Shown here piece after piece: positions 4,005 to 62,271 of a stretch of 64,000 nt of DNA (positions are counted from its first letter, which is position 1; the number at the start of each line of letters is the position of its first letter). The position numbers and the translations under genes were made by a program. This DNA is from Candidatus Staskawiczbacteria bacterium. Lineage in GTDB: Bacteria > Patescibacteriota > Minisyncoccia > Minisyncoccales > Staskawiczbacteraceae. Under the pieces are notes generated by a model. The model searched no databases. It was given only the letters and a program-made list of their open reading frames with translations, and was not told the DNA's origin. Location: assembly GCA_023245155.1 (NCBI GenBank), contig JAHFKV010000001.1, positions 267,034 through 331,033 of the forward strand. Direction: 5' to 3'.

Positions 4005-4144
4005 AAACAAGGGTGGTACCACGAGTAAAAACTTCTCGTCCCTGTGCGTAATTTAGTTATGCATAGAGATGGGAAGTTTTTTTGTACACGGATAATCTGT
4101 GTACGCTTCCTAAACAGTTCTTTACAACACGGAAAGGAGCACCC

Positions 4145-4939: not shown

Positions 4940-4941
4940 TC

Positions 4942-4985
4942 GTTGCCGCCTAAACTTGTACAAGTTTAGGCGGCAACATCTTTTC
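4942..4985 (+). terminator. terminator-like perfect palindrome
   Basis: GTTGCCGCCTAAACTTGT pairs with ACAAGTTTAGGCGGCAAC (4942-4977), followed by ATCTTTTC. Confidence 0.65.
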
Positions 4986-14900: not shown

Positions 14901-15301
14901 ATAACAGCAGCGCTACGGCAGTTACCGGTTCAAGTTGCGGTCAAGGTTCAGCTGCAGCAACTTCTCAGACCATCTTCTGCGAGTTTGCTACTTCAGGCGA
15001 TACTATGACTACGACTACTGGAGTTACCAACTCTGAAGACAACAACGACTTCGATGGTTACATTGTCCAAGCTGGAAAATCAGTTACTTTCAGCTTGTAC
15101 GCTATAGTTGCGGGAGCAACCACATCTACCAGCCCAGCCTCAATTTCAACCTCATTGGTTGCTGCAGGCTTTAACTGGGATGATGCTTCATATGCTGTAT
15201 TCAGCAGCAATGCAGTTACTGCAAATCCAAACAATGGAACGAACCTCACTGGTTCTAACATTTATGGATTCCCAACTAACAGCTACACCATCAAACAGTA
15301 A
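11924..15301 (+). CDS. giant cell-surface (S-layer-like) protein with N-terminal PG-binding domain
   Basis: 1125 aa. Signal/TM segment, PG_binding_1-like segment (GSVGSDVRCLQASMNALGY...FGPKTLVAVNHWQ), PSPTPSPTPNPNP linker, then about 1000 aa of T/S/A/G/N/V-rich repeated beta-type modules nearly devoid of charged residues. Confidence 0.8.
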   Translation: MNITKTIITATVALTMVAMIAPVMTSAATVPSACAGITLTRNLRVGSVGSDVRCLQASMNALGYTVAVSGAGSMGMETTHFGPKTLVAVNHWQQAVLHTSATQVGPMSRANLNAWLTGSPSPTPSPTPNPNPTGPVSVMLSPATPAAGNIVGGQATADLLHVTFTGSGTVTSVVLTRSGISDSNTLTNVYLFDGNTRITDGYSFSATTSMLTINGLNIAVNGSHEISARADVLSTAPTTASTIAVSLTGYTANGTTNTASVMGNTMSVVVGNLASATITAAASAAVPTANVNAGTTGYTFWSAPIQINTRAVWLKMANFRMIGSAPSDALSNIKLFIDGVDTGKVGMVMAINGSNYVVFDLTSAPISLMTGSHAVDMRADIQKGTNRTIQVSIQNASDLTIYDPQVGVNVAVSSTTAGSFSANNAGTISILTGSVTIVTDPTFTAQTTVSGGAANVVVARFKVHAYGEDVKISTLKIIPSILGATSTGSTCTTNATTGVIGTAVGTCGLNNVTLYFNGSQVGSQVNYVGATYTMGTVTTGSVITYTLGSQVIAPAGQDSWLEVRTDLQTEANVAYTGGTVKVGLPADTVNYGQGMSSQASITVPTAAIATSGLTISTNGLAVSKNSAYLNQSIAPNMSGVKIGSYVLQNQSTSQSIRLTSLSIATTITTTTVSNFSNLCVAVNSSSCNTSPIQFSGTQSGTTSTDVFSVTNSLAQGASILVDLYAQTGAATSGTIATTLNVSSIGAMDNIAAASGAKTGQTMTLGTGAVPTPTLVVSAASTTPAQFVAGAMPTGMTNASSQATFNFQSTSGASTITELKFTVSGSDASTSNMVSNICVGSICAQPVSGTAYLTGLNLNVPQGSGGLTQPVAIWYSPVGTNAIVPNNLAAVSLAYYKYISGGTTTTKTGTTLSGSDFTSVAAPTQTLVGSRPVVAVTNASVSGLNIGTVQNKIGEITVMADSRGDLKLNDIKFTAVSTGFATTVPTFTSAFISDNSSATAVTGSSCGQGSAAATSQTIFCEFATSGDTMTTTTGVTNSEDNNDFDGYIVQAGKSVTFSLYAIVAGATTSTSPASISTSLVAAGFNWDDASYAVFSSNAVTANPNNGTNLTGSNIYGFPTNSYTIKQ

Positions 15302-20967: not shown

Positions 20968-21912
20968 ATGGATGTTATTATCGTTTGTCATACCGAATTT
21001 GGTTTTGTGCGTAACAAAAAAGTTATTTACGAAAAAAAAGCCACCCAAGGCGTTACCAAGGGGGTGCTGAATTTAATGGGGGTGGCAAAAAGGTATAAAG
21101 CTAAAGTAACCTTCGCGGTTATGCCCGAGGTGGCTGAATATTTTCCTAAAGACACCGGTCAGGAAATTGGTTTGCATGTCCACGCGGGCTGGGAAACGTT
21201 TGGGCAAGGCAAAGATGCTTATGAGGTAGGGGATGCCTATTTACGAGTGCATTCCAAGCAATCAAGCGCTTCTACCGTGTTGCGGGATTATTCTTATGAT
21301 GAGCAATTTGATATGATTTGCCGAGGGAAAAAATATCTAGCAGAAATCTTGGGGAGTGCGCCAACCACCTTTGTGGCTGGCCGATGGTCGCTTAACAATG
21401 ACACCGTTAAGGCTTTGGTGGCCAACGGTTTCACCCATGATTGTTCAGCCCAGCCTGGTGCAAAACCTGCCCATCATGATTGGTCGCGGCTTCCCAGAAT
21501 CTGCATGCCGTACCATCCTCATGAACATGACTATCAAAAAAAAGGGGCCGCGCCCCTCTTAATGGTTCCCGGAGCCCAGTATTTTCCGGGTGGCGGTGTT
21601 AACCCGGAAATGGTTCCTTGGGTGGGGCTGGCGTGGCTCAAAGCCTGTTTTTCTGAATATTACCGGCAAGGCGCACCATTGTTCCATATCTGTTTACATT
21701 CGCCCTGCATGACCGATGATTATTTTATTTCAGCCATGGATCGCCTGTTAGAATTCATCGCCGGGCATGAACAGGTTCATTTCAAATGCGCCCGAGAGAT
21801 CCAAGAATACCCCAATCGGCATGTTGCCGCAACTATGTTGCCTTACCTAGCCGGCCTTAATCTGGCCATCATTAAAAGTTATTTTTTAAGTTCTTTTAAG
21901 ATTTTTTTATAA
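20968..21912 (+). CDS. hypothetical protein, possibly a divergent polysaccharide deacetylase-like enzyme
   Basis: 314 aa and His-rich (CHTEFG, GLHVHAGW, HICLHSP). The assignment is weak. Confidence 0.45.
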   Translation: MDVIIVCHTEFGFVRNKKVIYEKKATQGVTKGVLNLMGVAKRYKAKVTFAVMPEVAEYFPKDTGQEIGLHVHAGWETFGQGKDAYEVGDAYLRVHSKQSSASTVLRDYSYDEQFDMICRGKKYLAEILGSAPTTFVAGRWSLNNDTVKALVANGFTHDCSAQPGAKPAHHDWSRLPRICMPYHPHEHDYQKKGAAPLLMVPGAQYFPGGGVNPEMVPWVGLAWLKACFSEYYRQGAPLFHICLHSPCMTDDYFISAMDRLLEFIAGHEQVHFKCAREIQEYPNRHVAATMLPYLAGLNLAIIKSYFLSSFKIFL

Positions 21913-22796
21913 ATAGTTGCCTTGCCAAGTCCGTGGCGTTCCGCCAAATACTGCTGGTGGCCGGTAATTTTTTGGTAGCTATCGTCTATGCCTAAAGTGG
22001 TTAACTTGCCACCCAGGCGGTGTTTTAAGAGTTGTTCGGCGATGAGACTGCCCAAACCTCCGATGGTTCGGTGCTCTTCAATGGTGAAAATGTGTTTCTG
22101 TCCTTTGATTGCTTTCACTAGCGCTGGTTCATTGATTTGGCTTAAGGTGTGCAGGCTGATAACGGTAAGGTGTTTTTTTGATTCTTTCATGGTATCAGCT
22201 ACCGCCAAGCCGGTTTGTAAGCAAGCGCCGGTGGTGATGATGGCGCCGTCATTCCCATTCCGAATTACCGATGGTTTACCTAAAATCGTTTTGACTTTTG
22301 CGGGCATGAGAACGACTTCCGGTTTTAATAGCCGCAGGTAACAAGGGCCGGGTTTTTTGTATGATTGCAGAGTTAATTCTCGGGTTTGAATGGAATCAGC
22401 CGGGGAAATAACCGTGATGTTGGGCAGCGGCCGAAGAATAGAAATATCTTCAATGGCGTAGTGGGTGCTTCCAAAAGCTCCATAGGCAAACCCCGCGCCC
22501 ACGCCCACAATTTTCACATTGAGATTTTGGTAGCAAATGTCGTTGCGGATTTGTTCAAAGGGTCGCATGGTGGCAAAGGGAATAATGGAATAGACGTAAG
22601 GTTTTTTCCCTTCCAAAGCTAAGCCGGCGGCGATAGAGAGCATGCTTTGTTCCATTACCCCGCAGTTAATGAAGCGCCCGGGAAATTCTTTCGCGAAATC
22701 TTCAAAGACGGAAAATCCTAAATCGCCGGTTAGCAACATGATTTGCGTATCCTGGCGAGCCAGTTGGGTTAAGGTATCAATAAATGTTTTTCTCAC
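21879..22796 (-). CDS. transketolase, C-terminal (pyrimidine-binding) subunit
   Basis: 305 aa. MRKTFIDTLTQLARQD...DLGFSV...MEQSMLSIAAGLA. GTG start overlaps the upstream stop (GTGA). Confidence 0.85.
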   Translation of the reverse strand: MRKTFIDTLTQLARQDTQIMLLTGDLGFSVFEDFAKEFPGRFINCGVMEQSMLSIAAGLALEGKKPYVYSIIPFATMRPFEQIRNDICYQNLNVKIVGVGAGFAYGAFGSTHYAIEDISILRPLPNITVISPADSIQTRELTLQSYKKPGPCYLRLLKPEVVLMPAKVKTILGKPSVIRNGNDGAIITTGACLQTGLAVADTMKESKKHLTVISLHTLSQINEPALVKAIKGQKHIFTIEEHRTIGGLGSLIAEQLLKHRLGGKLTTLGIDDSYQKITGHQQYLAERHGLGKATIYKKILKELKK

Positions 22797-23599
22797 AGAA
22801 GTTCTTTGAGGGCTGAATGATATTGCTCTTGATTAGGATTTTTATAATGCCAGGTTAGGGGATCTTTTTCCATGAAAGAAATACCCTTGCCTTTTTTGGT
22901 TTTGGCAATAATTACCCTTGGGCGTTTAATACCCATGGAAGTTAGGGCTTTTTCAATTTGATGATAGTTGTGACCATTGATTTGTGTTGCCTTCCAGCCA
23001 AAAGCCTTCCACTTTTGTAAGAAGGGTTTATTTTTCATAATTTTTTCACTTTCACCTAAACCCTGTTGGCCGTTGTAGTCTATAATAACGGTAAGGTTGT
23101 CTAATTGGTGGTGGGCGGCGAACAAGGCGCTTTCCCAGGTGGTGCCTTCATTGCATTCTCCGTCAGACATTAATACTACCACTTTGAATTTTTTGTTGTC
23201 CTGCTTGGCTGCTAAAGCCATGCCAATGCCCATGGGAAGGCCGTGGCCAAGTCCACCCGTGGAAACTTCAACGCCGGGAGTAAAGCCTTTGGTTGAATGA
23301 CCTGGCAGCAAGCTGTCATTTTGGCAAAAAGTTTCCAGCATTTTTTTCGGGAAAAATCCTTTTTCAGCCAAAATGGCATACAGGGCGGCCACCGCATGTC
23401 CTTTGCTTAAAATAAAGCGATCTCGGCCAGGAGCTTGCGGTTTTTTTGGGGTTACTTTTAAAAAACCAAAATAAAGCACCGTTAAAATATCGGCGCAGGA
23501 AAGAGCCGATCCCACGTGAGATTCTTTAGACAAAAAATGCTGGAGCAAAATGCTTCGACGGATTTCTCTGGAAATTTCTTGGTAGTTACTCTTTTTCAT
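22793..23599 (-). CDS. transketolase, N-terminal (ThDP-binding) subunit
   Basis: HVGSALSCADIL...SKGHAVAALYA...MSDGECNEG. I prefer ATG 23599; the ORF-track start at 23620 is TTG. Confidence 0.85.
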   Translation of the reverse strand: MKKSNYQEISREIRRSILLQHFLSKESHVGSALSCADILTVLYFGFLKVTPKKPQAPGRDRFILSKGHAVAALYAILAEKGFFPKKMLETFCQNDSLLPGHSTKGFTPGVEVSTGGLGHGLPMGIGMALAAKQDNKKFKVVVLMSDGECNEGTTWESALFAAHHQLDNLTVIIDYNGQQGLGESEKIMKNKPFLQKWKAFGWKATQINGHNYHQIEKALTSMGIKRPRVIIAKTKKGKGISFMEKDPLTWHYKNPNQEQYHSALKELL

Positions 23600-24539
23600 A
23601 TAAAGACAGATTTTTTTCAAACCAGGCGATAGTTTTTTTTAAGCCTTGTTCTAGGGTGTAGCGGGGTTGCCAGCCCAGGAGTTTTTTGGCTTTAGAAATG
23701 TCATGCGCCCAGGTTTGAGCTTCGGGTTGGGCTAAACGTATTTTACCATACTGGGGCATGGTTTTAGCTTTAGTGATTTTTTTGGCTACGGTTACCACTT
23801 CTTCAATGGTAAAGGGTCTCTTTAAGCCGATATTAATAATCTGGCCTTTGATTTTGCTGATATTTTCTATGGCCAAAATATAGGCATTGATGACATCTTC
23901 AATAAACATGAACGGCCGGGCAATCTTTGGCTGAGAAAGATGGATCGGCCGATTTTGCAAGCAGCCCATAACTACCGAAGGCACCAAGCGTTCTTTTTCT
24001 TCAAAATATCCATAGGCGGCAAAGGGCCTGATGGTGACGGCTGGAAAGCCGGTTTGGCGCGCTATCATTTGGCAATACATGGTGGCTGCTCCCTTGGTAA
24101 TGCCATACAGATTTTCGGGTTCTAACACGTCAGTTTCTTTCATGGGTCTTTCTTTGATACCGTATTCTGAATTGGTGCCGGTGTTAATGAAAGCTTGCAC
24201 TCCGATTTTTTGACAGGCGTTGATCAGGTTAATGGTGCCTTTCAAGTTTGTATCAATGGTTAAGTTAATGTCTTGCTGGAAACGCTGATAGGCGCCATAG
24301 GTGGCAAAATGGAGAACAATATCGGGCCGGACTTTTCTAATCAGGGCTTTGACATCGGTGGCGTTTGATAAATCTATTGTTTTTATGGCAACGCCAGCGT
24401 TTTTGATGCGCCACAGGTTAGCACTTTTTCGTTCTGCAACAGTAACGCTGGCGCCTAGTTCTAAAAATTTGTACACAAAATTGGCACCGATAAACCCCGC
24501 CCCGCCCGTAATCAGAACTTTTTTATTTTTTACGTCCAT
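23586..24539 (-). CDS. NAD-dependent epimerase/dehydratase (SDR)
   Basis: KVLITGGAGFIGANF and YGITKGAATMY (YxxxK). Confidence 0.85.
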   Translation of the reverse strand: MDVKNKKVLITGGAGFIGANFVYKFLELGASVTVAERKSANLWRIKNAGVAIKTIDLSNATDVKALIRKVRPDIVLHFATYGAYQRFQQDINLTIDTNLKGTINLINACQKIGVQAFINTGTNSEYGIKERPMKETDVLEPENLYGITKGAATMYCQMIARQTGFPAVTIRPFAAYGYFEEKERLVPSVVMGCLQNRPIHLSQPKIARPFMFIEDVINAYILAIENISKIKGQIINIGLKRPFTIEEVVTVAKKITKAKTMPQYGKIRLAQPEAQTWAHDISKAKKLLGWQPRYTLEQGLKKTIAWFEKNLSLYEKE

Positions 24540-24663: not shown

Positions 24664-25176
24664 GTGGCTCAGGGTAGTCTTGAACTTTTGGCGGCGTTGG
24701 CGTTAATCGATCCACGCCAGCCCTATGGCACAGAGCTCTTTGACGCTCTGATTCGCCTTGGTGTTACTCCCTCTATTGAGGCGGTTTGTCTCCGGTTGAA
24801 TTCCGAGCGACAAATCGAAGTCTACCTGACTCGGCGGGCAGAGGATGACACTGCATATCCGGGGATGTATCACTGTCCCGGAACGGTCAGGCGACCACAT
24901 GAAACGATTGGGATGGGGTTTGAACGCCTCTCAAAAAAGGAATTTGGCGTTCCGTTACTATCCTACCGTTTCGTAGGCGAAGTTGATCATCCTGATGAGG
25001 CTCGCGCGCACCTGGTTTCCCAGGTGTATCTGTGTATTCCTCAAGATGGTCCGGGCAAGGGGCAATGGTTTCCGGTCGTGGGGCTACCACAGCCCATGGT
25101 CGAGACCCATGAGAAGCGAATCATACCGGCGGCGCTAGGAGTTTTCGTGGCCGGGAACACTGAATACTGTTGGTAA
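24664..25176 (+). CDS. Nudix-fold-like protein with a degenerate Nudix box (G+C-rich)
   Basis: GAAAGGTGG precedes GTG 24664. GTVRRPHETIGMGFERLSKKEFGV versus GX5EX7REUXEEXGU. The ORF-track N-terminal extension overlaps the minus-strand epimerase. Confidence 0.5.
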   Translation: MAQGSLELLAALALIDPRQPYGTELFDALIRLGVTPSIEAVCLRLNSERQIEVYLTRRAEDDTAYPGMYHCPGTVRRPHETIGMGFERLSKKEFGVPLLSYRFVGEVDHPDEARAHLVSQVYLCIPQDGPGKGQWFPVVGLPQPMVETHEKRIIPAALGVFVAGNTEYCW

Positions 25177-25224: not shown

Positions 25225-26169
25225 TTACGAAATCTTTCGATGCCAATCTAGGGTTTCTTCGATTCCTTCTTTAAAGCTGGTAGTAGGCTGCCAGCCAAGT
25301 TTTTCTTTGGCTTTGGACCAGTCTAGGTATTGGGCGGGGATTTCGTTTTTGGCAATATTTAAAATTTTATAGTTAACTTTTGTGCCTAAAATTTCTTGTA
25401 TTTTTTCCACCCCCTCAATAACGCTAAAAATATTTTTACTGCCGAAGTTAAAAGCTTCACCCTGCAATTCTTTGGCGCGCGCAGCCAGGGTAATGCAGCC
25501 TTTGGTGATGTCTTTTACATAGGTGTATTCGCGGATCATTTTGCCGTCGCTGCGAATTAAAAATTCTTCGTTGTGCAATATGGCTTTTACGACCCCGGGA
25601 ATGAGGCGTGAAAAATTGGTGTCGCCCGGGCCGTACACATTTGAAAAACGGGTGATGACAATGGGCATGTGATAGGTTTTCACATAGGTGGTGGTCAGTA
25701 AATCCGCTGCTGATTTTGAGGCGTCATAGGGGTGGCTGCCTCGCAACGCCGTGCTTTCGGTGTAGGGTAACGTTTGGGCGGTGCCATACGCCTTGTCAGA
25801 AGAAACCATTACTACCGAGGGGATCGTTGGCATGGTTCGGCAGATTTCTAATAGATTAACCGTTCCCATCACATTGGTTTCAATGGTTTTTAAGGGATTT
25901 TTATAGGCCACATCCACCAGTGGCTGGGCGGCCAAATGGAAAACCACAGAGGGTTTTTCCTTTTTGAAAATAGCCGCCATCTTTTTATAATCACGCACGT
26001 CAGTTTTATAGAACTTGGCTTTCGGGTGGATATTTTTTTTCAATCCCGAAGAGAGGTTATCAATCACCACTACCGTATTTTTTAACTCTGCCAAATCGGC
26101 CACCAAATGGCTGCCAATAAACCCCGCCCCGCCCGTTACCACGATTTTTTTTCTGGTTAGTCTTTCCAT
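25225..26169 (-). CDS. NDP-sugar 4,6-dehydratase/epimerase (SDR), probably the CDP-glucose 4,6-dehydratase partner of RfbF
   Basis: KIVVTGGAGFIGSHL, SSDKAYG, YDASKSAADLL. Overlaps rfbF by 13 nt. I prefer ATG 26169 to the TTG at 26196. Confidence 0.7.
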   Translation of the reverse strand: MERLTRKKIVVTGGAGFIGSHLVADLAELKNTVVVIDNLSSGLKKNIHPKAKFYKTDVRDYKKMAAIFKKEKPSVVFHLAAQPLVDVAYKNPLKTIETNVMGTVNLLEICRTMPTIPSVVMVSSDKAYGTAQTLPYTESTALRGSHPYDASKSAADLLTTTYVKTYHMPIVITRFSNVYGPGDTNFSRLIPGVVKAILHNEEFLIRSDGKMIREYTYVKDITKGCITLAARAKELQGEAFNFGSKNIFSVIEGVEKIQEILGTKVNYKILNIAKNEIPAQYLDWSKAKEKLGWQPTTSFKEGIEETLDWHRKIS

Positions 26170-26870
26170 AATTTCCACTTGGGATCTTTTTCCCAAAGCT
26201 CATTTAAATACAAAAAATCTTTATAGGTGTCCATGCCGTACCAAAAGCCTTCGTGCTTGTATAAGGCAGCTTGCTTCATTGGGATAAGCAGTTTCAGCGG
26301 GTCTTCAATCATGTCTCCCGGCTTTAAGTAGTTGAAAAATTCTTTGTTGAGCACCATGAAACCTCCGTTCACGTAGTCATAGAGCATAGGCTTTTGGGCA
26401 AATTCGGTAATGAGATTATCTTTGTCGGTATTTACCAATCCCCAGCGGGATTCCGGGTGCACCCCGGTGATGGTGGCAATTTTTCCGTGGCTTTTATGGA
26501 AGGCCACCAGCTTGGCAATATCAATGTCAGCCACCCCGTCTCCATAGGTGACCATGAACATATCTTCGGTAATGTGGGGCTTCATTTTTAACACCCGTTC
26601 GCCGTGGGGGGTTTCTAGGCCCGTGTCAATCGGCGTAACGGCAAATCCATGGTTGTTTTTGGAAAAATAGTCTTGAATCACTTCTCCCCTAAAGCCCAGA
26701 GCCGGCAGAAAGTGGTTATAGCCGTAGTGGTGATAAATTTTCATGATATGCCAAAGCATCGGCTTGCCGCCAATTTCCACCATCGGTTTGGGCTTGAATT
26801 CAGTTTCTTCTTTTAAGCGGGTGCCCGTACCTCCGCACAAGATAATCGTTTTGATTTTAGGGGAATCCAT
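26157..26870 (-). CDS. rfbF: glucose-1-phosphate cytidylyltransferase
   Basis: KTIILCGGTGTRLKEETEFKPKPMVEIGGKPMLWHIMKIY, typical of RfbF/DdhA. Confidence 0.9.
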   Translation of the reverse strand: MDSPKIKTIILCGGTGTRLKEETEFKPKPMVEIGGKPMLWHIMKIYHHYGYNHFLPALGFRGEVIQDYFSKNNHGFAVTPIDTGLETPHGERVLKMKPHITEDMFMVTYGDGVADIDIAKLVAFHKSHGKIATITGVHPESRWGLVNTDKDNLITEFAQKPMLYDYVNGGFMVLNKEFFNYLKPGDMIEDPLKLLIPMKQAALYKHEGFWYGMDTYKDFLYLNELWEKDPKWKLWKD

Positions 26871-26896
26871 AGTATAATAATATATTATAAAATAGC

Positions 26897-27904
26897 ATGG
26901 AAAAGGTAAAAAGACAACCTAAAATCAGCGTGATGCTGCTCACCTATAATCGAGATAAGCTGCTGCCCCGCGCCATTAAAAGCGCGTTAAACCAGACTTT
27001 CGGAAATTTTGAATTGGTGATTGTTAATAATGCCGCCACCGATACCACTGAGGCCGTGATCCAATCTTTTTTGGGAGACCCGCGGATTGTCTATAGAAAG
27101 CATGAAAAAAATACCGGCCCCTTCGGAGGATTGAATACCTGCTTAGATCTGGTAACCGGTGAATATGTGCTGAATTTGGCCGACGATGATGAACTGGTGC
27201 CAAATGCTTTGGAAACTATTTCTGACGCCATTGACCGGCTTTCGCCCCGGGGCATCCAGATTATCTATTTTGATTCTATTGACGCGGAAGTTCAGCAGTA
27301 CAGCGGTTCTGGTATTAAAAAAGAAGGGCCGGTAGCCTATGAGGATTATCTATGCAATCGTTTCAATGGCGACTACCAGGTGGTAATGGCCCGGTCAGTT
27401 ATTGGTAACAACCGTTTTGATCAAAATGCCTGGGGCGGTATGACCACCACCTATGGGTTGCGCTGTCACCGCGGAAATTTGGCCTATTATGTGCCAAAAA
27501 TCATTGCAAAATTATACCGATTGCACGGGGAAAGCCGGATTACCCGGGCTGAAACCACTCTGTATCACCATTTGCCAAAAATGTTGGGAACCCTGGAATC
27601 ATTTTTGGGAGAATTTGGCGAAGAAATTAAAAAAGCCTGCCCGGCTAATTATGGAGAGCGCTTAGCTTCTCTGGGGTTTTACCAAATCTTAAATGGCCGC
27701 TCCAAAGAAGGCCGAGTTCATTTGGCCACGGCTTTGAAATTCCGTTTTTCAGTTTTTCATGCCTTTGTTTATGTGGCTTCTTTTGCTTTAACTGCCCAGC
27801 AAATCAAATCCCTCTGCCTGATTTTTTTCAATATCCGCGAACGCTTGGTTAATCTTATTAAAAAATTCAAAAAACCAGTCGCCCTTACCAATGTCAGAGC
27901 ATAG
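26897..27904 (+). CDS. glycosyltransferase family 2
   Basis: ISVMLLTYNRDKLLPRAIKSALNQTFGNFELVIVNNAATD and ADDDE. Confidence 0.88.
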   Translation: MEKVKRQPKISVMLLTYNRDKLLPRAIKSALNQTFGNFELVIVNNAATDTTEAVIQSFLGDPRIVYRKHEKNTGPFGGLNTCLDLVTGEYVLNLADDDELVPNALETISDAIDRLSPRGIQIIYFDSIDAEVQQYSGSGIKKEGPVAYEDYLCNRFNGDYQVVMARSVIGNNRFDQNAWGGMTTTYGLRCHRGNLAYYVPKIIAKLYRLHGESRITRAETTLYHHLPKMLGTLESFLGEFGEEIKKACPANYGERLASLGFYQILNGRSKEGRVHLATALKFRFSVFHAFVYVASFALTAQQIKSLCLIFFNIRERLVNLIKKFKKPVALTNVRA

Positions 27905-29366
27905 AATCTTTTTTAAACGAATCGCTTCCATTGGGGTGGTCAAAATTTTTACCAGTTTCCGGGGTTTAATTATCTTGCCACTGCTGACGAAAACTCTGGG
28001 GGTGGCTTACTATGGGGTATGGGCCCAGATTTTAATTACCATTGGGTTATTAACCCCCCTGCTCACCCTGAACTTGGCCACGCCCATGGTCAGATTTTTA
28101 GCAGCTGAAAAAGATACCAAAAAAACCGCCCAAGGAATTTTTACTGTCATTTTCACGGTGTTGGCAGCAGCCGGTTTTTTTAGCTTAATTCTATTTTTAT
28201 TTTCAGATTCCACTGCCCTCCTGCTGTTGCAAGACCGGTCATACGCCCCATTCATTCAATTGGCCGCGGCGGTACTGATTTTTGAAGTGGTGAGCCAGAT
28301 TAGCATGGATTCATTTCGGATTTTCGGTCAGATTACCACCTATTCTTTCTTAAGCATTTTTCAAACTATCTTAGAAGTCAGCTTAATTATGGCAGCCATT
28401 TTTCTTGGCTGGGGCTTACCAGGAGCGCTGCTGGCCTTATTGATTACCAGAGCGGCGGTTTCTGGTATCGCTTTGGTATACATTTTTTGGCACACGGGAT
28501 TTGCCTTGCCCCGTCTTTCAATTTTAAAACCATACCTGGCCTTCGCCTTGCCATTGCTGCCATTGGGTTTATTTGATATATTAATTAATTCTGGCGACCG
28601 CTTTGTGATAGGATTTTTCAAGGGAGCCGTGGCCGTGGGCGTATATTCGGCCACTTATAGCATTGGGTTTTTAACCGTCATTTTCATTTTTCCCATTGCT
28701 TACATTCTATCTCCCACTATTTTTAAACTCTTTGACGAAGGCCAAATTGAGAAAGTTACCATGTATTTATCATATTCATTAAAATACTTTTTAGTATTTG
28801 CCATTCCTTCGGTATTCGGCTTAACCGTCTTGGCTAAAACCTTGCTCAGAACGCTAGCCACCTCTGAATTCGTGGCATTTAACAGTATGATAATTGTGCT
28901 AATGATTGCTTTGGGGGCGCTGTTATACGGGGTGCAGGCCGTGTATGGCCAAGTTATCATGCTGAAGAAAAAAACCAGCTTTTTCATTTTGGCATTTGGC
29001 ATCGGAGTTCTTTCCAATATGGTGTTAAATGTGATATTGATTCCTTACTGGGGCCCTTTAGCCGCCGCCGCCAGTACCCTGGTAGCCTACTTGTTAGTAG
29101 CGGCTTTGATTATTGGAAAATCCCGGCAGTATGTAAGGTTTGAGTTTAATACCGTTTTTGTCGCCAAAAGTATTTTTGCTTCCTGTCTGATGGCTTTAGC
29201 CATTGCTACTTTTAATCCGATTGGCTCTATCCAGATTTTACTAGCGGTGGGAGGGGGCGCTCTAGTCTATTTTTCCTTACTCTTGTTCAGCCGCGCATTC
29301 AGCTCACAAGAAATCGCTTTCTTTTCTTCAGCCTTACATATTCGTCATATCTTTGAAATACTATGA
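27891..29366 (+). CDS. Wzx-like flippase (second copy; MOP superfamily)
   Basis: 491 aa polytopic membrane protein. Confidence 0.75.
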   Translation: MSEHRIFFKRIASIGVVKIFTSFRGLIILPLLTKTLGVAYYGVWAQILITIGLLTPLLTLNLATPMVRFLAAEKDTKKTAQGIFTVIFTVLAAAGFFSLILFLFSDSTALLLLQDRSYAPFIQLAAAVLIFEVVSQISMDSFRIFGQITTYSFLSIFQTILEVSLIMAAIFLGWGLPGALLALLITRAAVSGIALVYIFWHTGFALPRLSILKPYLAFALPLLPLGLFDILINSGDRFVIGFFKGAVAVGVYSATYSIGFLTVIFIFPIAYILSPTIFKLFDEGQIEKVTMYLSYSLKYFLVFAIPSVFGLTVLAKTLLRTLATSEFVAFNSMIIVLMIALGALLYGVQAVYGQVIMLKKKTSFFILAFGIGVLSNMVLNVILIPYWGPLAAAASTLVAYLLVAALIIGKSRQYVRFEFNTVFVAKSIFASCLMALAIATFNPIGSIQILLAVGGGALVYFSLLLFSRAFSSQEIAFFSSALHIRHIFEIL

Positions 29367-30577
29367 AATCACCTTATAAAGTAACCTATGCAAAAGCGGT
29401 GCATGGCCCAGAAGAGTTACGAGCGGTGACTGATGTTATAAATAGTCATGCCACGGCCATGGGAAAGAATGTGCGCGGTTTTGAGATGGGGGTGGCCAAG
29501 CTGTTTGGAAAAAAGTTTGGAATCATGGTGAATTCCGGTTCTTCGGCCAATTTGTTAGCCGCCCGGATTTTTAACTTGCCGCCCGGTTCTGAATTTATTA
29601 CCCCGGTTCTGACGTTTTCTACTACCATTGCGCCTTTTTTACAGCAGGGTTTGGTGCCTGCATTTGTTGATGTACAAGCAGGCACGTACCAAATTGATGT
29701 TGAAAAAATTGAAGCCATGATTACCAAGAAAACCAAGGCTCTGGTGGTGCCGCTGTTGTTGGGAAATGTGCCAGATCTGGGGCGCCTGCGAGCCATTGCC
29801 AAAAAACATAAGTTGCTTTTTCTGGAAGATTCTTGCGATACGCTTGGGGCAACGTTTTATGGTAAGCCAACCGGCCGGTTTTCTGACGCTTCAATTACCA
29901 GTTTTTACGGCTCCCACGTGATTACGGCCGGGGGCAGCGGCGGGATGCTGTGTATTGATCGCCAGGCTTGGCGCCGCAAAGCTTTGATGCTCCGGGGCTG
30001 GGGCCGGACTTCTTCGGTGATTGATTCAGAAGATATTAAAAAACGTTTTGGCGCGCGCATTGCCGGCAAGCCTTATGATGCCAAATTTTTGTTTGAAGAA
30101 GTGGGTTACAATTTTGTTCCCAATGAAATGGAGGCGGCCTTTGGCTTGGCCCAGCTGAAAAAATTAGCATCGTTCCGAAAGATTCGTCAGCAGAATTTCA
30201 AGGCCCTCAAAACCTATTTTAAGCAGTATGAAAACCTGTTTGTGTTACCCGAAGAATTGCCCGGTACCAATACCGCCTGGCTGGCATTTCCCCTAACCAT
30301 CAAACCTGGCGCACCCTTTTCGCGTTACGACCTAGTGGCTTATTTGGAAACCCATGGCGTGCAAACGCGGCCGGTGTTTACGGGCAATGTGTTGCGTCAG
30401 CCTGCTTTTAAAAACCTGCGGGCCTCACGTAGTCGCCAGGGCTACCCGATAGCCGATAAGATCATGCAACAGGGTTTTCTGATCGGTTGCCATCATGGGA
30501 TGGACAAAGCCCAGCTAGATTTCCTGAAGGGGTTATTTGAAACCTTCCTTACACCATGGAAAAAAAGCCGCTCTTAA
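29363..30577 (+). CDS. DegT-family NDP-hexose 3-dehydratase-like enzyme (RfbH/E1 or ColD type)
   Basis: DegT/DnrJ/EryC1 fold (MVNSGSSANLLA). The PLP-Lys position reads His (SFYGSHVITAGG; His codon 29915-29917), whereas the paralog at 48384 has AFYPNKQITTGEGG. Confidence 0.7.
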   Translation: MKSPYKVTYAKAVHGPEELRAVTDVINSHATAMGKNVRGFEMGVAKLFGKKFGIMVNSGSSANLLAARIFNLPPGSEFITPVLTFSTTIAPFLQQGLVPAFVDVQAGTYQIDVEKIEAMITKKTKALVVPLLLGNVPDLGRLRAIAKKHKLLFLEDSCDTLGATFYGKPTGRFSDASITSFYGSHVITAGGSGGMLCIDRQAWRRKALMLRGWGRTSSVIDSEDIKKRFGARIAGKPYDAKFLFEEVGYNFVPNEMEAAFGLAQLKKLASFRKIRQQNFKALKTYFKQYENLFVLPEELPGTNTAWLAFPLTIKPGAPFSRYDLVAYLETHGVQTRPVFTGNVLRQPAFKNLRASRSRQGYPIADKIMQQGFLIGCHHGMDKAQLDFLKGLFETFLTPWKKSRS

Positions 30578-37076: not shown

Positions 37077-38242
37077 AGGTTTTGTACTTAACGTTTGACG
37101 GTATTACCGATCCCTTGGGTCAGTCCCAAGTGCTGCCCTATGTGGAAGGTTTGGCTAAGCAGGGTGTTCAGTTCCAATTGGTGAGCCTAGAAAAGAATCT
37201 GAAAAAAGCCCGGGAGTTTTTACCGCAGATACAAAATCCAAATATTCATTGGTATCGGTTGCGCTATGTGAAGGTCCGTTTTCTGGGAGCGGTGATAAAT
37301 GAAGCCCAAGTGTTTTTTCGGGTTTTTTTTGTGCTTTTATCTAAGTCAATAGATATCTTTCATTGCCGGTCATATTTGCCCTTGGTGCCAGCGTTAGTTT
37401 TTCAAAAGTTCTTTGGGTACAAGATTATTTTTGATATGCGCGGCTTTTGGCCTGAAGGCCTGGTGGAAGTTGGCCGTATCAAGAAAGATTCGGCGGCCTT
37501 TACGGTTTTAAAAATGCTTGAGCGATGGGGGGTTTTATGCTCAGATCATATCGTAGTTCTTACGCCTGAAGCTCAAGAAATGTTAGTTTCTCAATATCCC
37601 AAAAAAGCCGGCCAAATTACTTGGATGCCCACCTGTGTTGATGAGGAAAAGTTTGGTAATGTTCCTCCCATTTCTTTTGCCCAAAAGTTTGTGATAGTGT
37701 ATTCAGGCAGCCTCTGGAATTATTGTGATACCCCTGCCATGCTTGATTTCTTTGTAGCAGTGAAAAAAATGGTTCCAGAAGCCCATTTTTTGTTATTGGG
37801 AAATAATCAGCCAGAAAAAATCCTTCCATTGTTTGCTGAACGTAATATTTCAGAAAAAGCGTACACGGTGCTCACCGTTCCCCCAAGTCAAGTGCCTGCT
37901 TACTTGGCGGGCAGTCAGGTGGGGATTTCGTTCCGGAAAGATTTTTATTCTGAAAAAGCCGCTTTTCCCACCAAGCTAGCAGAATACTTAATGAGTGGCC
38001 TGCCGGTAGTGGCCAACACTGCCTCGCCCCATATTACTCATTTGATAACTTCGCAAAAAGTGGGTATTATAGTAGAAGCTTTTAATTCAGAATCTTTTCA
38101 GAAAGCCGCCACCGACTTGTTGGCGTTAATGAAAGATCCCAATTTGCCAAAACGTTGCCAAGAGACTGCCAAAAAGTATTTGGAAAACCGGGTATGCATT
38201 AACGCCTACGCGAATATATATCATGAATTGCAGAAATTGTAA
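37073..38242 (+). CDS. glycosyltransferase family 4-like (GT-B)
   Basis: 389 aa, MKVLYLTFDGITDPLGQSQV... N-terminus. ATGA overlap with the upstream gene. Confidence 0.75.
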   Translation: MKVLYLTFDGITDPLGQSQVLPYVEGLAKQGVQFQLVSLEKNLKKAREFLPQIQNPNIHWYRLRYVKVRFLGAVINEAQVFFRVFFVLLSKSIDIFHCRSYLPLVPALVFQKFFGYKIIFDMRGFWPEGLVEVGRIKKDSAAFTVLKMLERWGVLCSDHIVVLTPEAQEMLVSQYPKKAGQITWMPTCVDEEKFGNVPPISFAQKFVIVYSGSLWNYCDTPAMLDFFVAVKKMVPEAHFLLLGNNQPEKILPLFAERNISEKAYTVLTVPPSQVPAYLAGSQVGISFRKDFYSEKAAFPTKLAEYLMSGLPVVANTASPHITHLITSQKVGIIVEAFNSESFQKAATDLLALMKDPNLPKRCQETAKKYLENRVCINAYANIYHELQKL

Positions 38243-39437
38243 AAAATCTATTACAGAATTTTTTTCTCTGGGGCAGATGCCTTCGGTGAATACATTTCTT
38301 AAACAAGAAGAAATCGCCACGGAAAAAAAGTATGATTTGAGTGTTGGGTTTTGCCCTCATTGCTTTTTAGTCCAGCTGATCAATAACATACCACCCGAAG
38401 ATATTTTTACTCATTATGTTTATTTCTCATCAGTTTCCCAATACTTTTTGGAACATTGTAAAAAAACAGCAAAGTACTTAACTGAAAAGTTACATTTGAA
38501 TAAAGAGAGTTTGGTTTTAGAAATTGCCAGCAATGACGGCGCCCAGCTGCAATATTTTCAAGAATTAGGAATACCGGTCCTGGGTGTAGATCCGGCCCAA
38601 AATATCACCAGAATTGCCGAAGCAAAAGGGATAAAAACCATCACGGCATTTTTTAATCATCATCTTGCCAAGCAGCTACGAGAAAAAAATATACGGGCAG
38701 ATTTGGTTTTTGGTTCTAACGTATTAGCCCATGTTCCAGAAATCGTAGATTTTTTACATGGAGTAAAACAAGTGTTAAAGCCCAAAGGGACGGCAGTTTT
38801 TGAATTTCCCTATATGAAAGGTTTGTTGGAAAACAAGTTTGACACCATTTATCACGAACATGTTTTTTATTATTCTCTGATTGCATTGGTAAATCTCTTT
38901 AAAACTGCGGGATTAGAAATTTATGATGTTGAAATGACGCCCATGCAAGGAGGTTCTTTAATGATTTACGCCAGCTGCCCCGGGGTTTTCCCTATCCATA
39001 ACCATGTGAAAGATCTTGTGGCAGAGGAAATAAAGAGCGGTTTTAACTTGCTTGGAACATATCAAAAAATGGGTCAAAATGTGCTGGCCTTAAAGTATTC
39101 GTTAGTTGATGTCTTAAAAAGTATTAAACGTGAAGGAAAAAAAATAGTTGCTTACTCGGCTCCAGCAAAGGGGAATACGTTATTAAACTATTTTAATATC
39201 AACAAGAATTATTTAGATTTTATCGTTGATAAATCAAAAGCAAAACAAGGATTATATACTCCCGGAACACACTTATTAGTTGAACCCGTAGAGAAAATAT
39301 ACGAGACTAGGCCAGATTATTTATTGATATTATGCTGGAATATTGTTGATGAAGTGGTAGTCATGGAAGAATTACAAGAATGGCGCCGGGGTGGTGGAAA
39401 ATTTATCATTGCCGTACCAAGCATAAAAATTTTATAA
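38223..39437 (+). CDS. NDP-hexose C-methyltransferase (TylCIII/NovU-like)
   Basis: N-terminal Zn ribbon CRNC...CPHC, SAM-binding core (LEIASNDG) and a C-terminal C-methyltransferase-type domain. Confidence 0.8.
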   Translation: MNCRNCKKSITEFFSLGQMPSVNTFLKQEEIATEKKYDLSVGFCPHCFLVQLINNIPPEDIFTHYVYFSSVSQYFLEHCKKTAKYLTEKLHLNKESLVLEIASNDGAQLQYFQELGIPVLGVDPAQNITRIAEAKGIKTITAFFNHHLAKQLREKNIRADLVFGSNVLAHVPEIVDFLHGVKQVLKPKGTAVFEFPYMKGLLENKFDTIYHEHVFYYSLIALVNLFKTAGLEIYDVEMTPMQGGSLMIYASCPGVFPIHNHVKDLVAEEIKSGFNLLGTYQKMGQNVLALKYSLVDVLKSIKREGKKIVAYSAPAKGNTLLNYFNINKNYLDFIVDKSKAKQGLYTPGTHLLVEPVEKIYETRPDYLLILCWNIVDEVVVMEELQEWRRGGGKFIIAVPSIKIL

Positions 39438-39460
39438 AAAGCGGGCAGCAAAATTCAGTA

Positions 39461-39988
39461 ATGCAATTTACTAAAACAAAATTAGAGGGGCTCTATATCT
39501 TAGAACCTGAGTTAAAAACTGATGAACGCGGATTTTTTGCCAGAACTTTTTGCAAAGATGAATTATTAAAGTTAGGGATTGTATTTGATATTGTGCAAGC
39601 AAATATGTCTTTTAATATAAAAAAAGGCACGTTGCGGGGAATGCATTTTCAGGCATCTCCCAAAGCTGAAGATAAGATCGTGCAATGCGCTCGGGGGACA
39701 ATTTACGACGTAGTCATTGATTTACGTGAAAATTCAAGTACGTATGGCCAATGGGTAGGTGAAGAATTATCCGAGAAAAATAAAAGAATGCTTTTAATTC
39801 CAAAGGGGTGCGCGCAAGGATTTTTAACGTTGACTGATAATTGTCTGTTGCAGTATTTAATGTCAGAATTTTACGATCCTAAATATGCCAATGGAGTACG
39901 TTTTGACGATCCTTATTTTCACATTACTTGGCCGATAAAAAATCCCATTGTTTTGGAAAGAGATATGCATTGGCCCCTCATGAAATGA
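39461..39988 (+). CDS. rfbC: dTDP-4-dehydrorhamnose 3,5-epimerase family (RmlC-like)
   Basis: GLYILEPELKTDERGFFARTF...LRGMHFQ...KIVQCARGTIYDVVIDLR. Confidence 0.9.
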   Translation: MQFTKTKLEGLYILEPELKTDERGFFARTFCKDELLKLGIVFDIVQANMSFNIKKGTLRGMHFQASPKAEDKIVQCARGTIYDVVIDLRENSSTYGQWVGEELSEKNKRMLLIPKGCAQGFLTLTDNCLLQYLMSEFYDPKYANGVRFDDPYFHITWPIKNPIVLERDMHWPLMK

Positions 39989-40851
39989 AAAAGATATTAC
40001 TGATTGGTAAAACCGGCCAACTGGGAGCAGAGCTGATGAAGGATGCAGCCGCTCGTGGATTTAAAATTGCAGGATATGAAAAAGACCAATTGGATATTAC
40101 CAATGTTAATGAAGTGCGGGAAAAAATAGCGCAAGAGAAGCCCTCTATTGTTATCAATACTGCAGCTTACCATGTGCTACCCTTGTGTGAAAAAAATCCT
40201 CTCCTGGCCATGGCGATAAATTTTGTCGCCGTTAATAATTTGGCCAGAATATGCAAAGAACATAATATTCTTTTTGTTACTTATAGTACCGATTATGTGT
40301 TTGATGGCCAAAAGGGGTCTCCCTATCAAGAAGATGATCTAACTAGCCCTCTTCAAGTGTATGGGATGTCTAAGCTGGCGGGAGAATATGCAGCTTTACA
40401 TTCTCATCCTGGCGGGACGTTTATTATTAGGACGTGCGGGCTTTATGGGGGCGAGAATGGCAGTCTTCAAAAGGGAGGGAATTTTGTTTTAAATATTATC
40501 AAACAAGCAACTTCTCAAAAAACAATTGAGGTGGGTTCTGAGCAGGTGGTTAGTCCCACCTATGCGGGAGATCTTAGCAAGGCAACCCTAGATTTATTCA
40601 AATTTGCCGCGGTGCCAGGAATCTATCACCTTGTTAATGAGGGGCAATGTAGTTGGTACGAACTGGCGCGGGAAACTTTTGCGTTAGCTAACATAGATGC
40701 AAAAATAATCCCAGTCAATCGGAGTGGCCAAGGCGCACAGATGAAGCGCCCGCTCTTTTCTGCCCTCCAGAATACGAAGGCCAAAGCCCTGGGAATCCAG
40801 TTACCCTCTTGGCAAGAAGGCTTAAAATCGTACATAATGAAAAGAATATGA
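39985..40851 (+). CDS. rfbD: dTDP-4-dehydrorhamnose reductase family (RmlD-like)
   Basis: MKKILLIGKTGQLG...YGMSKLAGE. ATGA overlap with rfbC. Confidence 0.88.
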   Translation: MKKILLIGKTGQLGAELMKDAAARGFKIAGYEKDQLDITNVNEVREKIAQEKPSIVINTAAYHVLPLCEKNPLLAMAINFVAVNNLARICKEHNILFVTYSTDYVFDGQKGSPYQEDDLTSPLQVYGMSKLAGEYAALHSHPGGTFIIRTCGLYGGENGSLQKGGNFVLNIIKQATSQKTIEVGSEQVVSPTYAGDLSKATLDLFKFAAVPGIYHLVNEGQCSWYELARETFALANIDAKIIPVNRSGQGAQMKRPLFSALQNTKAKALGIQLPSWQEGLKSYIMKRI

Positions 40852-48383: not shown

Positions 48384-49523
48384 ATGACTAAGCGTACAAA
48401 ATCTATTCCACTTTCGGGAGCGGATATTGGTCAAAAAGAGATTGACGCTGTTTTGGAAGTTCTTCAAAGTAAGCGTTTGGCCCTAGGGCCGACGTTAACT
48501 GCGTTTGAAAACGCGGCGGCAAGCTTTGTTGGCGTAAAACACGCCGTGGGGGTAAACAGCGCTACCAGTGGCTTGCATCTTATTATCAGGGCCCTGAGAA
48601 TAACCAAGGGTGATGAAGTAATTACCACCCCATTTTCTTTTGTTGCTTCATCAAACTGTATCTTATACGAAGGTGCCACTCCCGTTTTCGTGGATATTGA
48701 ACCGCATACGTTTAACATTGATGTTTCAAAAATAGAAGCAAAAATTACTAAAAAAACCAAAGCCATTTTGGCAGTGGACGTATTCAGTCATCCCGCTGAT
48801 TGGGATGCTTTACAAAAAATTGCTAAAAAACACAATTTATTTTTAATTGAAGATGCTGCTGAATCGTTAGGTTCAACCTATAAAGGCAAGCCCTGCGGCA
48901 GTTTTGGTGACGCGGCGGTGTTCGCCTTTTATCCCAACAAGCAAATTACCACAGGCGAAGGCGGCATGATTCTGACCAACAACAAAAAAATCGCAGACCT
49001 TTGCCGTAGCTTGTCTAACCAGGGCAGGGAGATTAAACATGGAGCTTGGTTAGCGCACGTGAGATTGGGTTACAATTATCGGCTTGATGAAATGTCTTCG
49101 GCCGTGGGCTTGGTCCAATTAACAAGGATCAAAGAAATTTTGGCCAAGCGTAAAAAGGTGGCAGCCTGGTATAGTAAAAAGTTGCAACAGGTTAAAGGGT
49201 TGAGGATTCCGCAAACTGCGCCAAATGCCACAATGAGCTGGTTTGTGTATGTGGTGTTACTGGACCAGAAATTGGCAGGAGTTAAACGCGATATGATACT
49301 GCAGAAGATGGTAAAAAAGGGAATTGCCTGCAGTAATTATTTTCAACCCATTCATTTGCAGCCCTTCTATAAAAAAGAATTTGGTTTTACGGCCGGAGAC
49401 TTTCCGGTTGCCGAAAACATTGGTTCTCGCACTCTGGCTCTGCCATTTTTCAACAATCTTACCCAAAGAGAAGTTGATTACGTGGTAAAAAGTGTAACGG
49501 AAATACTCCATGAATTTGTTTAA
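48384..49523 (+). CDS. DegT/DnrJ/EryC1/StrS-family sugar aminotransferase (PglE-like)
   Basis: AVNSATSGLHL and AFYPNKQITTGEGG (PLP Lys present). Confidence 0.9.
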   Translation: MTKRTKSIPLSGADIGQKEIDAVLEVLQSKRLALGPTLTAFENAAASFVGVKHAVGVNSATSGLHLIIRALRITKGDEVITTPFSFVASSNCILYEGATPVFVDIEPHTFNIDVSKIEAKITKKTKAILAVDVFSHPADWDALQKIAKKHNLFLIEDAAESLGSTYKGKPCGSFGDAAVFAFYPNKQITTGEGGMILTNNKKIADLCRSLSNQGREIKHGAWLAHVRLGYNYRLDEMSSAVGLVQLTRIKEILAKRKKVAAWYSKKLQQVKGLRIPQTAPNATMSWFVYVVLLDQKLAGVKRDMILQKMVKKGIACSNYFQPIHLQPFYKKEFGFTAGDFPVAENIGSRTLALPFFNNLTQREVDYVVKSVTEILHEFV

Positions 49524-59785: not shown

Positions 59786-59813
59786 TTGGTTGTGGCAAAT
59801 AAAATGCTATAAT
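59786..59813 (+). promoter_or_regulatory. promoter TTGGTT-N16-TGcTATAAT
   Basis: -35 at 59786-59791; extended -10 at 59805-59813; ATG at 59826. Confidence 0.55.
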
Positions 59814-59825
59814 ATACTAATTATC

Positions 59826-61210: not shown

Positions 61211-61214
61211 ACGT

Positions 61215-62171: not shown

Positions 62172-62271
62172 GGCTGTGTATAACCAGTCCCTGTTGCATA
62201 TTTTATAATTTGATATAATTGCGCAACTGGGGGTATTCTAATATTAAAAAATAATAAGTAATACAAAAAGT

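Follow-up and report, generated by a model that had tools for sequence, protein, structure and literature searches.

The E1/E3 pair is the textbook case of a deoxygenation that combines pyridoxamine 5'-phosphate (PMP) with iron-sulfur (Fe-S) radical chemistry, and the evolution of E1 from aminotransferases has been postulated to pass through an intermediate form. Only three sugar 3-dehydratases, E1, ColD, and SpnQ, are well characterized (PMC8987622). E1 and SpnQ have their own [2Fe-2S] cluster, which relays the electrons of a reductase to the PMP-glucoseen adduct; ColD is cluster-free, hydrolyzes the adduct, and has its PMP regenerated from glutamate (PMC8987622). We analyzed a stretch of 64,000 nucleotides (the window) from Candidatus Staskawiczbacteria bacterium (assembly GCA_023245155.1, contig JAHFKV010000001.1, positions 267,034 to 331,033), in which a plus-strand gene at 29363..30577 encodes a 404-residue protein of the DegT fold. 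Based on PDB and NCBIfam matches and on an AlphaFold2 (AF2) model compared by Foldseek, this protein is a candidate E1-like sugar 3-dehydratase free of an Fe-S cluster. We consider it fairly probable that it is a cytidine diphosphate (CDP)-4-keto-6-deoxyglucose 3-dehydratase with ColD-type turnover.

The protein matched Pfam family PF01041, which corresponds to the DegT/type-I aminotransferase fold. The best PDB sequence was E1 (3bcx, 1.3e-70, 241 bits), followed by ColD (4.7e-52, 180 bits). A further match (1e-37) was 9wvy, deposited as a 'putative NDP-4-keto-6-deoxyglucose-3-dehydratase' (NDP, nucleoside diphosphate), for which a literature search found no paper. The top NCBIfam model was RfbH (NF011936) with 325.4 bits, below its equivalog cut-off of 423 bits, and the second best was PseC with 169 bits. 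The AF2 model, built with 22 homologues in the alignment, had a mean predicted local distance difference test (pLDDT) score of 87.4; its sole weak part was residues 211-250, the region of the former cluster loop. When this model was compared with known structures by Foldseek, Yersinia E1 (3bcx) ranked first (template modeling score 0.89, 34% identity), above perosamine synthase and ColD.

Four sets of relatives were used to judge conservation. A word-indexed search returned at least 7,973 homologues at E <= 1e-30, and the top 120 of these were 50-77% identical to the window protein; they lie mostly on metagenome contigs, and the named ones come from metagenome-assembled genomes (MAGs) of Patescibacteria. 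A scan of one genome per species gave 80 Cys-less loci with 81 copies of the gene. The sources of these loci are Saccharibacteria and other Patescibacteria, DPANN archaea, Methanosarcinales, and cultured Alphaproteobacteria (Sphingobium, Novosphingobium, Ruegeria, Sinorhizobium, and Qipengyuania). An exhaustive search of 50%-identity cluster representatives was also conducted, and the best 150 were analyzed. As a control set, Fe-S-type homologues from 80 metagenome loci were collected, and the CxC...C loop is present at every one of these loci.

An earlier reading of the sequence alone had reported a His at the position of the pyridoxal 5'-phosphate (PLP)-binding lysine, and this was confirmed. 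The translation of window positions 29900-29932 is SFYGSHVITAG, residues 180-185 are SFYGSH, and the codon for His185 is at 29915..29917 on the plus strand. HMMER pairs His185 with His220 of Yersinia E1, the residue mutated in the H220K crystal chain 3bb8. The catalytic lysine typical of DegT/DnrJ/EryC1/StrS aminotransferases is absent from the protein, with His in its place; the 10 residues on either side of His185 include no Lys, and none could be aligned with the Schiff-base position. An ordinary DegT aminotransferase at 48384..49523 (plus strand), in which the same reading had pointed out the lysine motif AFYPNK, served as the internal comparison and tree outgroup; the motif was found and the Pfam DegT match is strong (2.6e-125, 419 bits). 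The His185 column holds His in 120 of 120 close homologues, in 81 of 81 locus copies, and in 147 of 150 cluster representatives, and the three representatives without a scored His are two rows gapped at this position and one misaligned row that contains an intein. The PLP/PMP-binding columns S58-G59-S60, D156, and S180 are kept in the clade of the window protein, the Fe-S group, and the ColD group alike.

The ligands of the E1 cluster are reportedly Cys193, Cys251, Cys253, and Cys261, in the motif C-X57-C-X1-C-X7-C. The window protein contains three cysteines in all (158, 197, and 376), in agreement with the earlier remark that few are available for an E1-type cluster. On the E1 alignment, three of the four ligand positions have no Cys and only the Cys193 equivalent, C158, is kept. 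The HMMER counterpart of the E1 Cys loop is RGWGRTSSVIDSEDIKKRFG, with zero Cys; the residues that correspond to the loop of Cys251, Cys253, and Cys261 are 211-232 (29993..30058, plus strand; RGWGRTSSVIDSEDIKKRFGAR), and their pLDDT is low (53-67). The loop is equally devoid of Cys in 118 of the 120 close homologues, in 80 of 81 locus copies, and at 79 of 80 loci, and the consensus of the top 120 homologues is RGWGRSSxxxxSExxxxRF. Since the ligands are missing, the protein has no visible acceptor for the electrons of a reductase.

A rival explanation is that the enzyme nevertheless works reductively as E1 does, the PMP-glucoseen being reduced by an unlinked ferredoxin, flavodoxin, or E3-like protein, either directly or through a metal site made of other residues. 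We regard this as unlikely. The electron relay in E1 and SpnQ is the enzyme's own [2Fe-2S] cluster (PMC8987622). Here three of its ligands are gone, and a quarter of the relatives do without the fourth, C158, which is Ala in 20 of 81 locus copies; the only conserved Cys columns in the clade are 158 and 376, neither of them invariant. An alternative Rieske-like site formed by C158, C376, H377, and H378 was considered and judged unlikely, because C158 is Ala in 10 and C376 is not Cys in 17 of 46 representatives (counted over a wider Cys-less grouping described below), and C158 is equally conserved in the cluster-free ColD.

Two observations concern other E1-like proteins. Protein P0240 is much nearer to E1 (291 bits) and yet has a loop without Cys, seemingly a separate loss of the cluster ligands; it reads EDCSHALG, with Ser and His where E1 has Cys193 and Asp194. 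Representatives P0126 and P0264 contain inteins (Hint/Intein_splicing, one with LAGLIDADG) inserted near the conserved EDxCD/active-site region.

The reductive alternative was also examined through the genes for possible electron donors, and the search in the source genome covered the 64-kb window out of a contig of at least 429 kb. Among the main open reading frames (ORFs) of at least 150 aa, Pfam found no Fer2, FAD_binding_6, or NAD_binding_1 protein (39 ORFs were scanned directly and the remainder through precomputed gene calls). BLAST with two E3-like seeds from the control loci gave no match in window ORFs of at least 60 aa, and no plant-type 2Fe-2S, 4Fe-4S, or Rieske motif was found in ORFs of that size. 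The sequence-only reading was therefore correct that no E3/RfbI reductase gene is visible here. The weight it placed on this absence has to be reduced to almost none, since an E3-like gene (Fer2 plus ferredoxin-NADP reductase, FNR) is nearby in only 3 of the 80 Fe-S-type control loci (L081-L160), at L155 1-921, L158 487-1554, and L137 2-223. For the same reason E3 adjacency was dropped as a discriminator. A dedicated linked E3 characterizes the enteric clusters, not the family at large, and most environmental Fe-S-type E1 homologues probably rely on unlinked reductases in the manner of SpnQ, which uses general cellular ferredoxin/flavodoxin reductase pairs and no dedicated E3 (PMC8987622). Unlinked partners are thus normal in the family, which speaks for a reductive mechanism, as does the adrenodoxin-type ferredoxin gene beside one Cys-less gene. 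This 123-aa [2Fe-2S] protein (L070, 11908-12276, minus strand) adjoins a Cys-free E1-like gene in a Flavipsychrobacter MAG. The other 79 of the 80 Cys-less loci have no ferredoxin or FNR gene, and none of the 80 has an E3 gene. The meaningful feature is the loss of the ligands rather than the absence of E3. For an E1-like enzyme with no cluster and no evident electron path, ColD-type turnover is the most economical reading.

The window protein belongs to a large group. The best 150 cluster representatives include 94 with a Cys-free loop (ColD-type included) and about 46 with the CxC...C loop, and the 25 representatives nearest to the window protein are all Cys-free. In a neighbor-joining (NJ) tree calculated without the loop columns, it falls among 39 clusters (50% identity) that form a clade with Cys-free members only, apart from both E1 and ColD. 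A wider 46-member grouping, taken from the NJ leaf order, had no support (9 of 100 bootstraps) and was replaced by the 39-member clade. With the 48384 protein as outgroup, the window protein does not group with ordinary aminotransferases in the NJ trees. The discriminating columns form a mosaic: columns 9, 80, 85, 159, and 241 match the Fe-S group and columns 184, 242, 255, and 377 match the ColD group. Just before the catalytic His (column 184), Ser is present in 85% of clade members and 82% of ColD-group sequences, and Ala in 92% of the Fe-S group, while His377 is found in 97% of the clade and 76% of the ColD group and is replaced by Tyr in the Fe-S group. The protein is best described as a member of a cluster-free E1-like lineage, being neither E1/RfbH by the Fe-S test nor part of the ColD clade.

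This lineage is large, widespread, and already in the databases under generic names, and no characterization of it was found. The NCBI annotation pipeline (PGAP) calls Cys-free homologues that are 53-54% identical to the window protein only 'DegT/DnrJ/EryC1/StrS family aminotransferase', and it names Fe-S-type homologues of about 35% identity RfbH, which is a systematic annotation gap. The database names among the relatives include 'NDP-hexose 3,4-dehydratase'. Some Cys-free homologues are located on Sinorhizobium/Ensifer replicons of pSymB size and on Roseibium plasmids (e.g., NZ_CP019631.1, 73781-75013).

The substrate is suggested by two genes that lie 2.5 kb from the E1-like gene on the opposite strand. 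The first (26157..26870, minus strand) encodes a 237-aa RfbF-like glucose-1-phosphate cytidylyltransferase; the Salmonella enzyme is about 20 aa longer. Its best PDB match by far is the S. typhi glucose-1-phosphate cytidylyltransferase 1TZF (8e-53; next family, 2e-18), and it scores 229 bits against the NCBIfam model G1P_cyt_trans (TIGR02623), below the 300-bit cut-off. The NCBIfam and Pfam scans revealed no other sugar nucleotidyltransferase in the window. The second gene (25225..26169, minus strand) encodes an RfbG-like short-chain dehydrogenase/reductase (SDR) of the CDP-glucose 4,6-dehydratase type. The two genes overlap by 13 nt, as had been stated, with the ATG of the SDR at 26169 and the rfbF stop codon TAA at 26159-26157. 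The SDR scores 210 bits against TIGR02622, below cut-off, and about equally against the deoxythymidine diphosphate (dTDP)-glucose dehydratase model, likewise below cut-off. Its S-D-K motif aligns with T-D-K of a PGAP-annotated rfbG, and the two other SDRs in the window have no such motif; in CDP-glucose dehydratases, Asp-Lys at this site takes the place of the Asp-Glu pair. No gmd, manC, RmlA, or RmlB was found in the 64-kb window. Between the divergent starts of rfbF and of the operon that holds the GT2 (glycosyltransferase), flippase, and E1-like genes there are 26 very AT-rich base pairs (26871-26896; agtataataatatattataaaatagc), so promoters, if any, overlap one another or sit in coding sequence.

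It could also be argued that the enzyme is a 3-dehydratase for another substrate, with a different nucleotide carrier or a pre-modified sugar, and that the rfbF/rfbG linkage is only partly relevant. In favor of this are the scores below the equivalog cut-offs for both genes, the equal score of the SDR as a dTDP-glucose dehydratase, the presence of RmlC-like and RmlD-like genes in the window, and the roughly 40% of related loci that have no RfbF within 10 kb. On the other hand, RfbF is the sole nucleotidyltransferase here with 1TZF as its closest structural relative, the Asp-Lys dyad of the SDR aligns with that of an annotated rfbG, and rfbF, rfbG, and the E1-like gene follow each other on one strand in Roseibium and in a Methanosarcinales MAG. 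Moreover, at D159, F85, and T80 the protein agrees with the CDP/TDP-glucose-type Fe-S group and not with the guanosine diphosphate (GDP)-mannose-type ColD. We therefore give a different substrate a low probability and keep CDP-4-keto-6-deoxy-D-glucose as the favored one.

The gene neighborhood of the relatives is consistent with this choice. Within 10 kb, 48 of 80 Cys-less loci and 49 of 80 Fe-S-type loci, or about 60% of each, carry an RfbF-like gene, and a split transketolase is present in 10-11 of 80 Cys-less and 6 of 80 Fe-S-type loci. Cys-free and Fe-S-type genes occupy the same neighborhoods and the same pathway slot, and with the link to rfbF and rfbG in about 60% of 80 related loci, the description of this region as a CDP-dideoxyhexose module was essentially right. 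In Roseibium algicola, the two genes that immediately precede a 54%-identical homologue are annotated by PGAP as rfbF and rfbG, and the homologue is followed by a C-methyltransferase (Methyltransf_13/14) and an SDR; the operon order is rfbF, rfbG, E1-like gene, C-methyltransferase, and SDR (L161 13395-15611 is listed with the C-methyltransferase observation). In the Methanosarcinales MAG the order on one strand is RfbF, RfbG, the E1-like gene, and the N- and C-terminal transketolase subunits. C-methyltransferase homologues were found in 22 of 80 Cys-free and 0 of 80 Fe-S-type loci, a comparison in which the Fe-S-type flanks are shorter (0.86 versus 1.45 Mb in total). Cys-free members are also fused to 4,6-dehydratase-like SDRs, RmlD-like reductases, and RmlC-like epimerases, with one triple fusion of RmlC, RmlD, and the E1-like domain. 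Such fusions were rejected as a discriminator, since SDR, RmlD-like, and RmlC-like fusions occur in both the Cys-less and the Fe-S-type proteins, and never one with E3; being common to both types, they support the pathway role and not the mechanism.

RmlC-type epimerases, RmlD-type reductases, C-methyltransferases of this kind, and carboligases dependent on thiamine diphosphate (ThDP) all require a 4-keto sugar. Therefore, the partner and fusion enzymes argue for a 4-keto-3-deoxy sugar, rather than a 4-amino one, as the product of the E1-like enzyme. This bears on the possibility that the protein is in effect a 4-aminotransferase yielding CDP-4-amino-4,6-dideoxyglucose, for which there is a precedent in a side activity of SpnQ: without its reductase, SpnQ transaminates the substrate when given PLP and glutamate (PMC8987622). 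The PGAP family label would also fit. Neither E1 nor ColD transaminates in this way under comparable conditions (PMC8987622), the His is invariant in the family, and an aminotransferase would be expected to keep its Lys. The RmlC- and RmlD-like fusions and the adjacent C-methyltransferase, ketoreductase, and transketolase genes need a 4-keto sugar, neither N-acyl nor N-methyl transferases are regular neighbors, and the window already holds the Lys-type DegT protein at 48384. An aminotransferase role is thus quite unlikely in our view.

The preferred reading, a 3-dehydratase with ColD-type turnover, would work as follows. CDP-4-keto-6-deoxy-D-glucose would be supplied by the adjacent RfbF-like and RfbG-like enzymes. 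With His185 in place of the Schiff-base lysine, PMP is proposed to be bound non-covalently and would form a ketimine with the sugar, after which His185 would act as the base and the 3-hydroxyl would be expelled. The enamine adduct would be hydrolyzed as in ColD to CDP-4-keto-3,6-dideoxyglucose and ammonia with no reductase involved, and PMP would be regenerated from PLP by an amino acid donor, most likely L-glutamate. Of the two options that the earlier reading had left side by side, ColD-like action on a CDP-sugar or a reductase encoded elsewhere, the first is supported by the missing ligands, the CDP context, and the 4-keto partners; the ColD-like chemistry itself is what we infer from them.

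The 4-keto product could then be passed to a split transketolase and a second SDR (SDR2), which would attach two carbons as a branch and then reduce the product; the analogy is with YerE and YerF, which carry out acetyl branching on CDP-3,6-dideoxy-4-keto-glucose. The C-terminal (pyrimidine-binding) transketolase subunit is encoded at 21879..22796 (minus strand; Pfam Transket_pyr and Transketolase_C, with NCBIfam matches) and the N-terminal (ThDP pyrophosphate-binding) subunit at 22793..23620 (minus strand; Pfam Transketolase_N; NCBIfam transketolase 6e-76, below cut-off). SDR2 (23586..24539, minus strand), an extended SDR of the epimerase/ketoreductase type with Pfam Epimerase/RmlD_sub_bind and generic PDB matches, is a candidate 4-keto or side-chain ketoreductase. 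Ten loci carry the transketolase (L003, L006, L008, L010, L023, L025, L026, L027, L036, and L058); in six of these it adjoins the E1-like gene or lies within 1 kb of it, the distance in the other four is 2-8 kb, and SDR2 orthologues adjoin it in L003, L008, L036, and L058. For the miharamycin and amipurimycin pathways it has been proposed that split-gene transketolases attach a hydroxyacetyl branch to keto sugars, and no such transketolase has been characterized in vitro. A literature search found no pathway that joins a transketolase to rfbH. The recurrence of the gene pair suggests that a CDP-4-keto-3,6-dideoxy sugar receives a two-carbon branch in an uncharacterized step. A bolder proposal is that the Cys-free clade is a third mechanistic class, with an E1 scaffold and reductase-independent C-3 deoxygenation of CDP-sugars, and that its transketolase-bearing loci, the window included, use the split transketolase and an SDR to make a new C-branched (hydroxyacetyl/dihydroxyethyl) 3,6-dideoxyhexose for the surface glycans of Patescibacteria and archaea. 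We put this forward tentatively, as it is possible but rather doubtful.

Several points weigh against ColD-type turnover on a CDP-sugar. The protein is nearer to E1 than to ColD overall and has E1-group residues at 80, 85, 159, and 241, so such turnover is not guaranteed by homology. The NJ support for the 39-cluster clade is moderate (33 of 50 bootstraps). Gly191, which changes GEGG to GG[NS]GG, is peculiar to the clade. As both the RfbF-like and RfbG-like proteins score below the NCBIfam equivalog cut-offs, the specificity for nucleotide and hexose is a prediction. An unlinked electron donor may be encoded outside the 64-kb window. Finally, a literature search found no characterized Fe-S-free CDP-sugar 3-dehydratase and no report of this dehydratase family in Patescibacteria.

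The module had been delimited as 25225-30577, which holds the core genes, yet it reaches further, to SDR2, the split transketolase, and a NUDIX-like gene on one side and probably to a C-methyltransferase, an RmlC-like, and an RmlD-like gene downstream on the other. The NUDIX-like ORF (24664..25176, plus strand) is divergent, 170 aa long, and called as a gene in one assembly; it stands between two minus-strand gene blocks and fills an apparent 685-bp gap between SDR2 and the RfbG-like gene. Its Pfam NUDIX match has an E value of 0.0038 here and 1.9e-7 in a homologue, and homologues were found in 11 Cys-less loci and 1 Fe-S-type locus. The protein is thus a possible hydrolase of nucleotide sugars. 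On the downstream side of the E1-like gene, Pfam identifies a sugar C-methyltransferase (38223..39437), an RmlC-like epimerase (39380..39988), and an RmlD-like reductase (39928..40851), all on the plus strand. These would be possible tailoring genes for the 4-keto product of the CDP pathway, and the finished sugar would be used by the glycosyltransferases of the cluster.

The E1-like gene sits within a glycan cluster of about 35 kb that includes two Wzx-like flippases, a Wzy_C/tetratricopeptide repeat protein, and many glycosyltransferases and methyltransferases. The earlier remark that 3,6-dideoxyhexoses are classically O-antigen sugars of Gram-negative enterics gives the wrong frame, since the host is a Patescibacteria bacterium. 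SecA encoded in the window shares 77% identity with the Candidatus Staskawiczbacteria protein, and its remaining named matches are from Patescibacteria. Upstream of the cluster, on the plus strand, are genes for a protein with two lamin-tail domains (8500-9774) and a 1125-aa ORF with no Pfam match (11924-15301). Other large window ORFs with no family match are at 1-768, 4082-5576, 41938-43482, and 59790-63321.

To judge from this survey, cluster-free proteins would form a large part of what E1-like genes encode in nature: they account for 94 of the nearest 150 representatives (ColD-type included), among them all close relatives of the window protein. What is notable is the scale of the cluster loss together with the CDP context; the proposed chemistry has a clear precedent in ColD. 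If turnover is ColD-style, CDP-3,6-dideoxy and branched sugars would be made without oxygen-sensitive redox partners, which would be useful for enzymatic synthesis, where reconstitution of E1/E3 has failed. The cluster-free lineage would then supply the intermediate postulated in the evolution of E1, and the generic aminotransferase names given by PGAP would be corrected. With Roseibium, Sinorhizobium/Ensifer, and Novosphingobium as cultured carriers, the idea is directly testable.

Compared with the known systems, the closest solved relative is E1 (AscC/DdhC/RfbH of Yersinia and Salmonella; CDP-6-deoxy-L-threo-D-glycero-4-hexulose 3-dehydrase). The two are alike in fold, in the correspondence of His185 with His220, in D159, F85, and T80, in the genomic partners rfbF and rfbG, and in RfbH as the best NCBIfam model. 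They differ in that the window protein has no Cys251, Cys253, or Cys261 and reaches 325 bits against the 423-bit RfbH cut-off, has Ser rather than Ala before the His, His rather than Tyr at 377, and Gly for the glutamate of GEGG, is about 33 aa shorter at the N-terminus, and has no E3 partner found in the 64-kb window.

ColD (WbdK), the GDP-4-keto-6-deoxy-D-mannose 3-dehydratase of the colitose pathway, needs no reductase and is the proposed mechanistic model. It shares with the window protein the His, the absence of a cluster, the Ser-His dyad, and the residues at columns 184, 242, 255, and 377. However, the two are only 28-30% identical and fall in separate clades. The ColD group has E, W, and V where the window protein has D159, F85, and T80, and the ColD loop follows the pattern 'HGW[TS]R'. 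The genomic context is also different, that of ColD being GDP-mannose and that of the window protein CDP-glucose, with neither gmd nor manC at hand. SpnQ and the NDP-hexose 3,4-dehydratases of antibiotic pathways resemble the window protein as His-type PMP enzymes with no dedicated linked E3. Unlike it, SpnQ has a [2Fe-2S] cluster; SpnQ also needs ferredoxin/flavodoxin reductases and acts on a dTDP-2,6-dideoxy sugar (PMC8987622).

At the level of the pathway, the closest parallel is yersiniose biosynthesis (DdhA-D, YerE, and YerF), in which a CDP-3,6-dideoxy-4-keto sugar is likewise handed to a ThDP-dependent enzyme that forms a C-C bond and then to an NAD(P)H-dependent reductase. The difference lies in the ThDP enzyme, which is a split transketolase in the window and a YerE-type decarboxylase/lyase in the yersiniose pathway.

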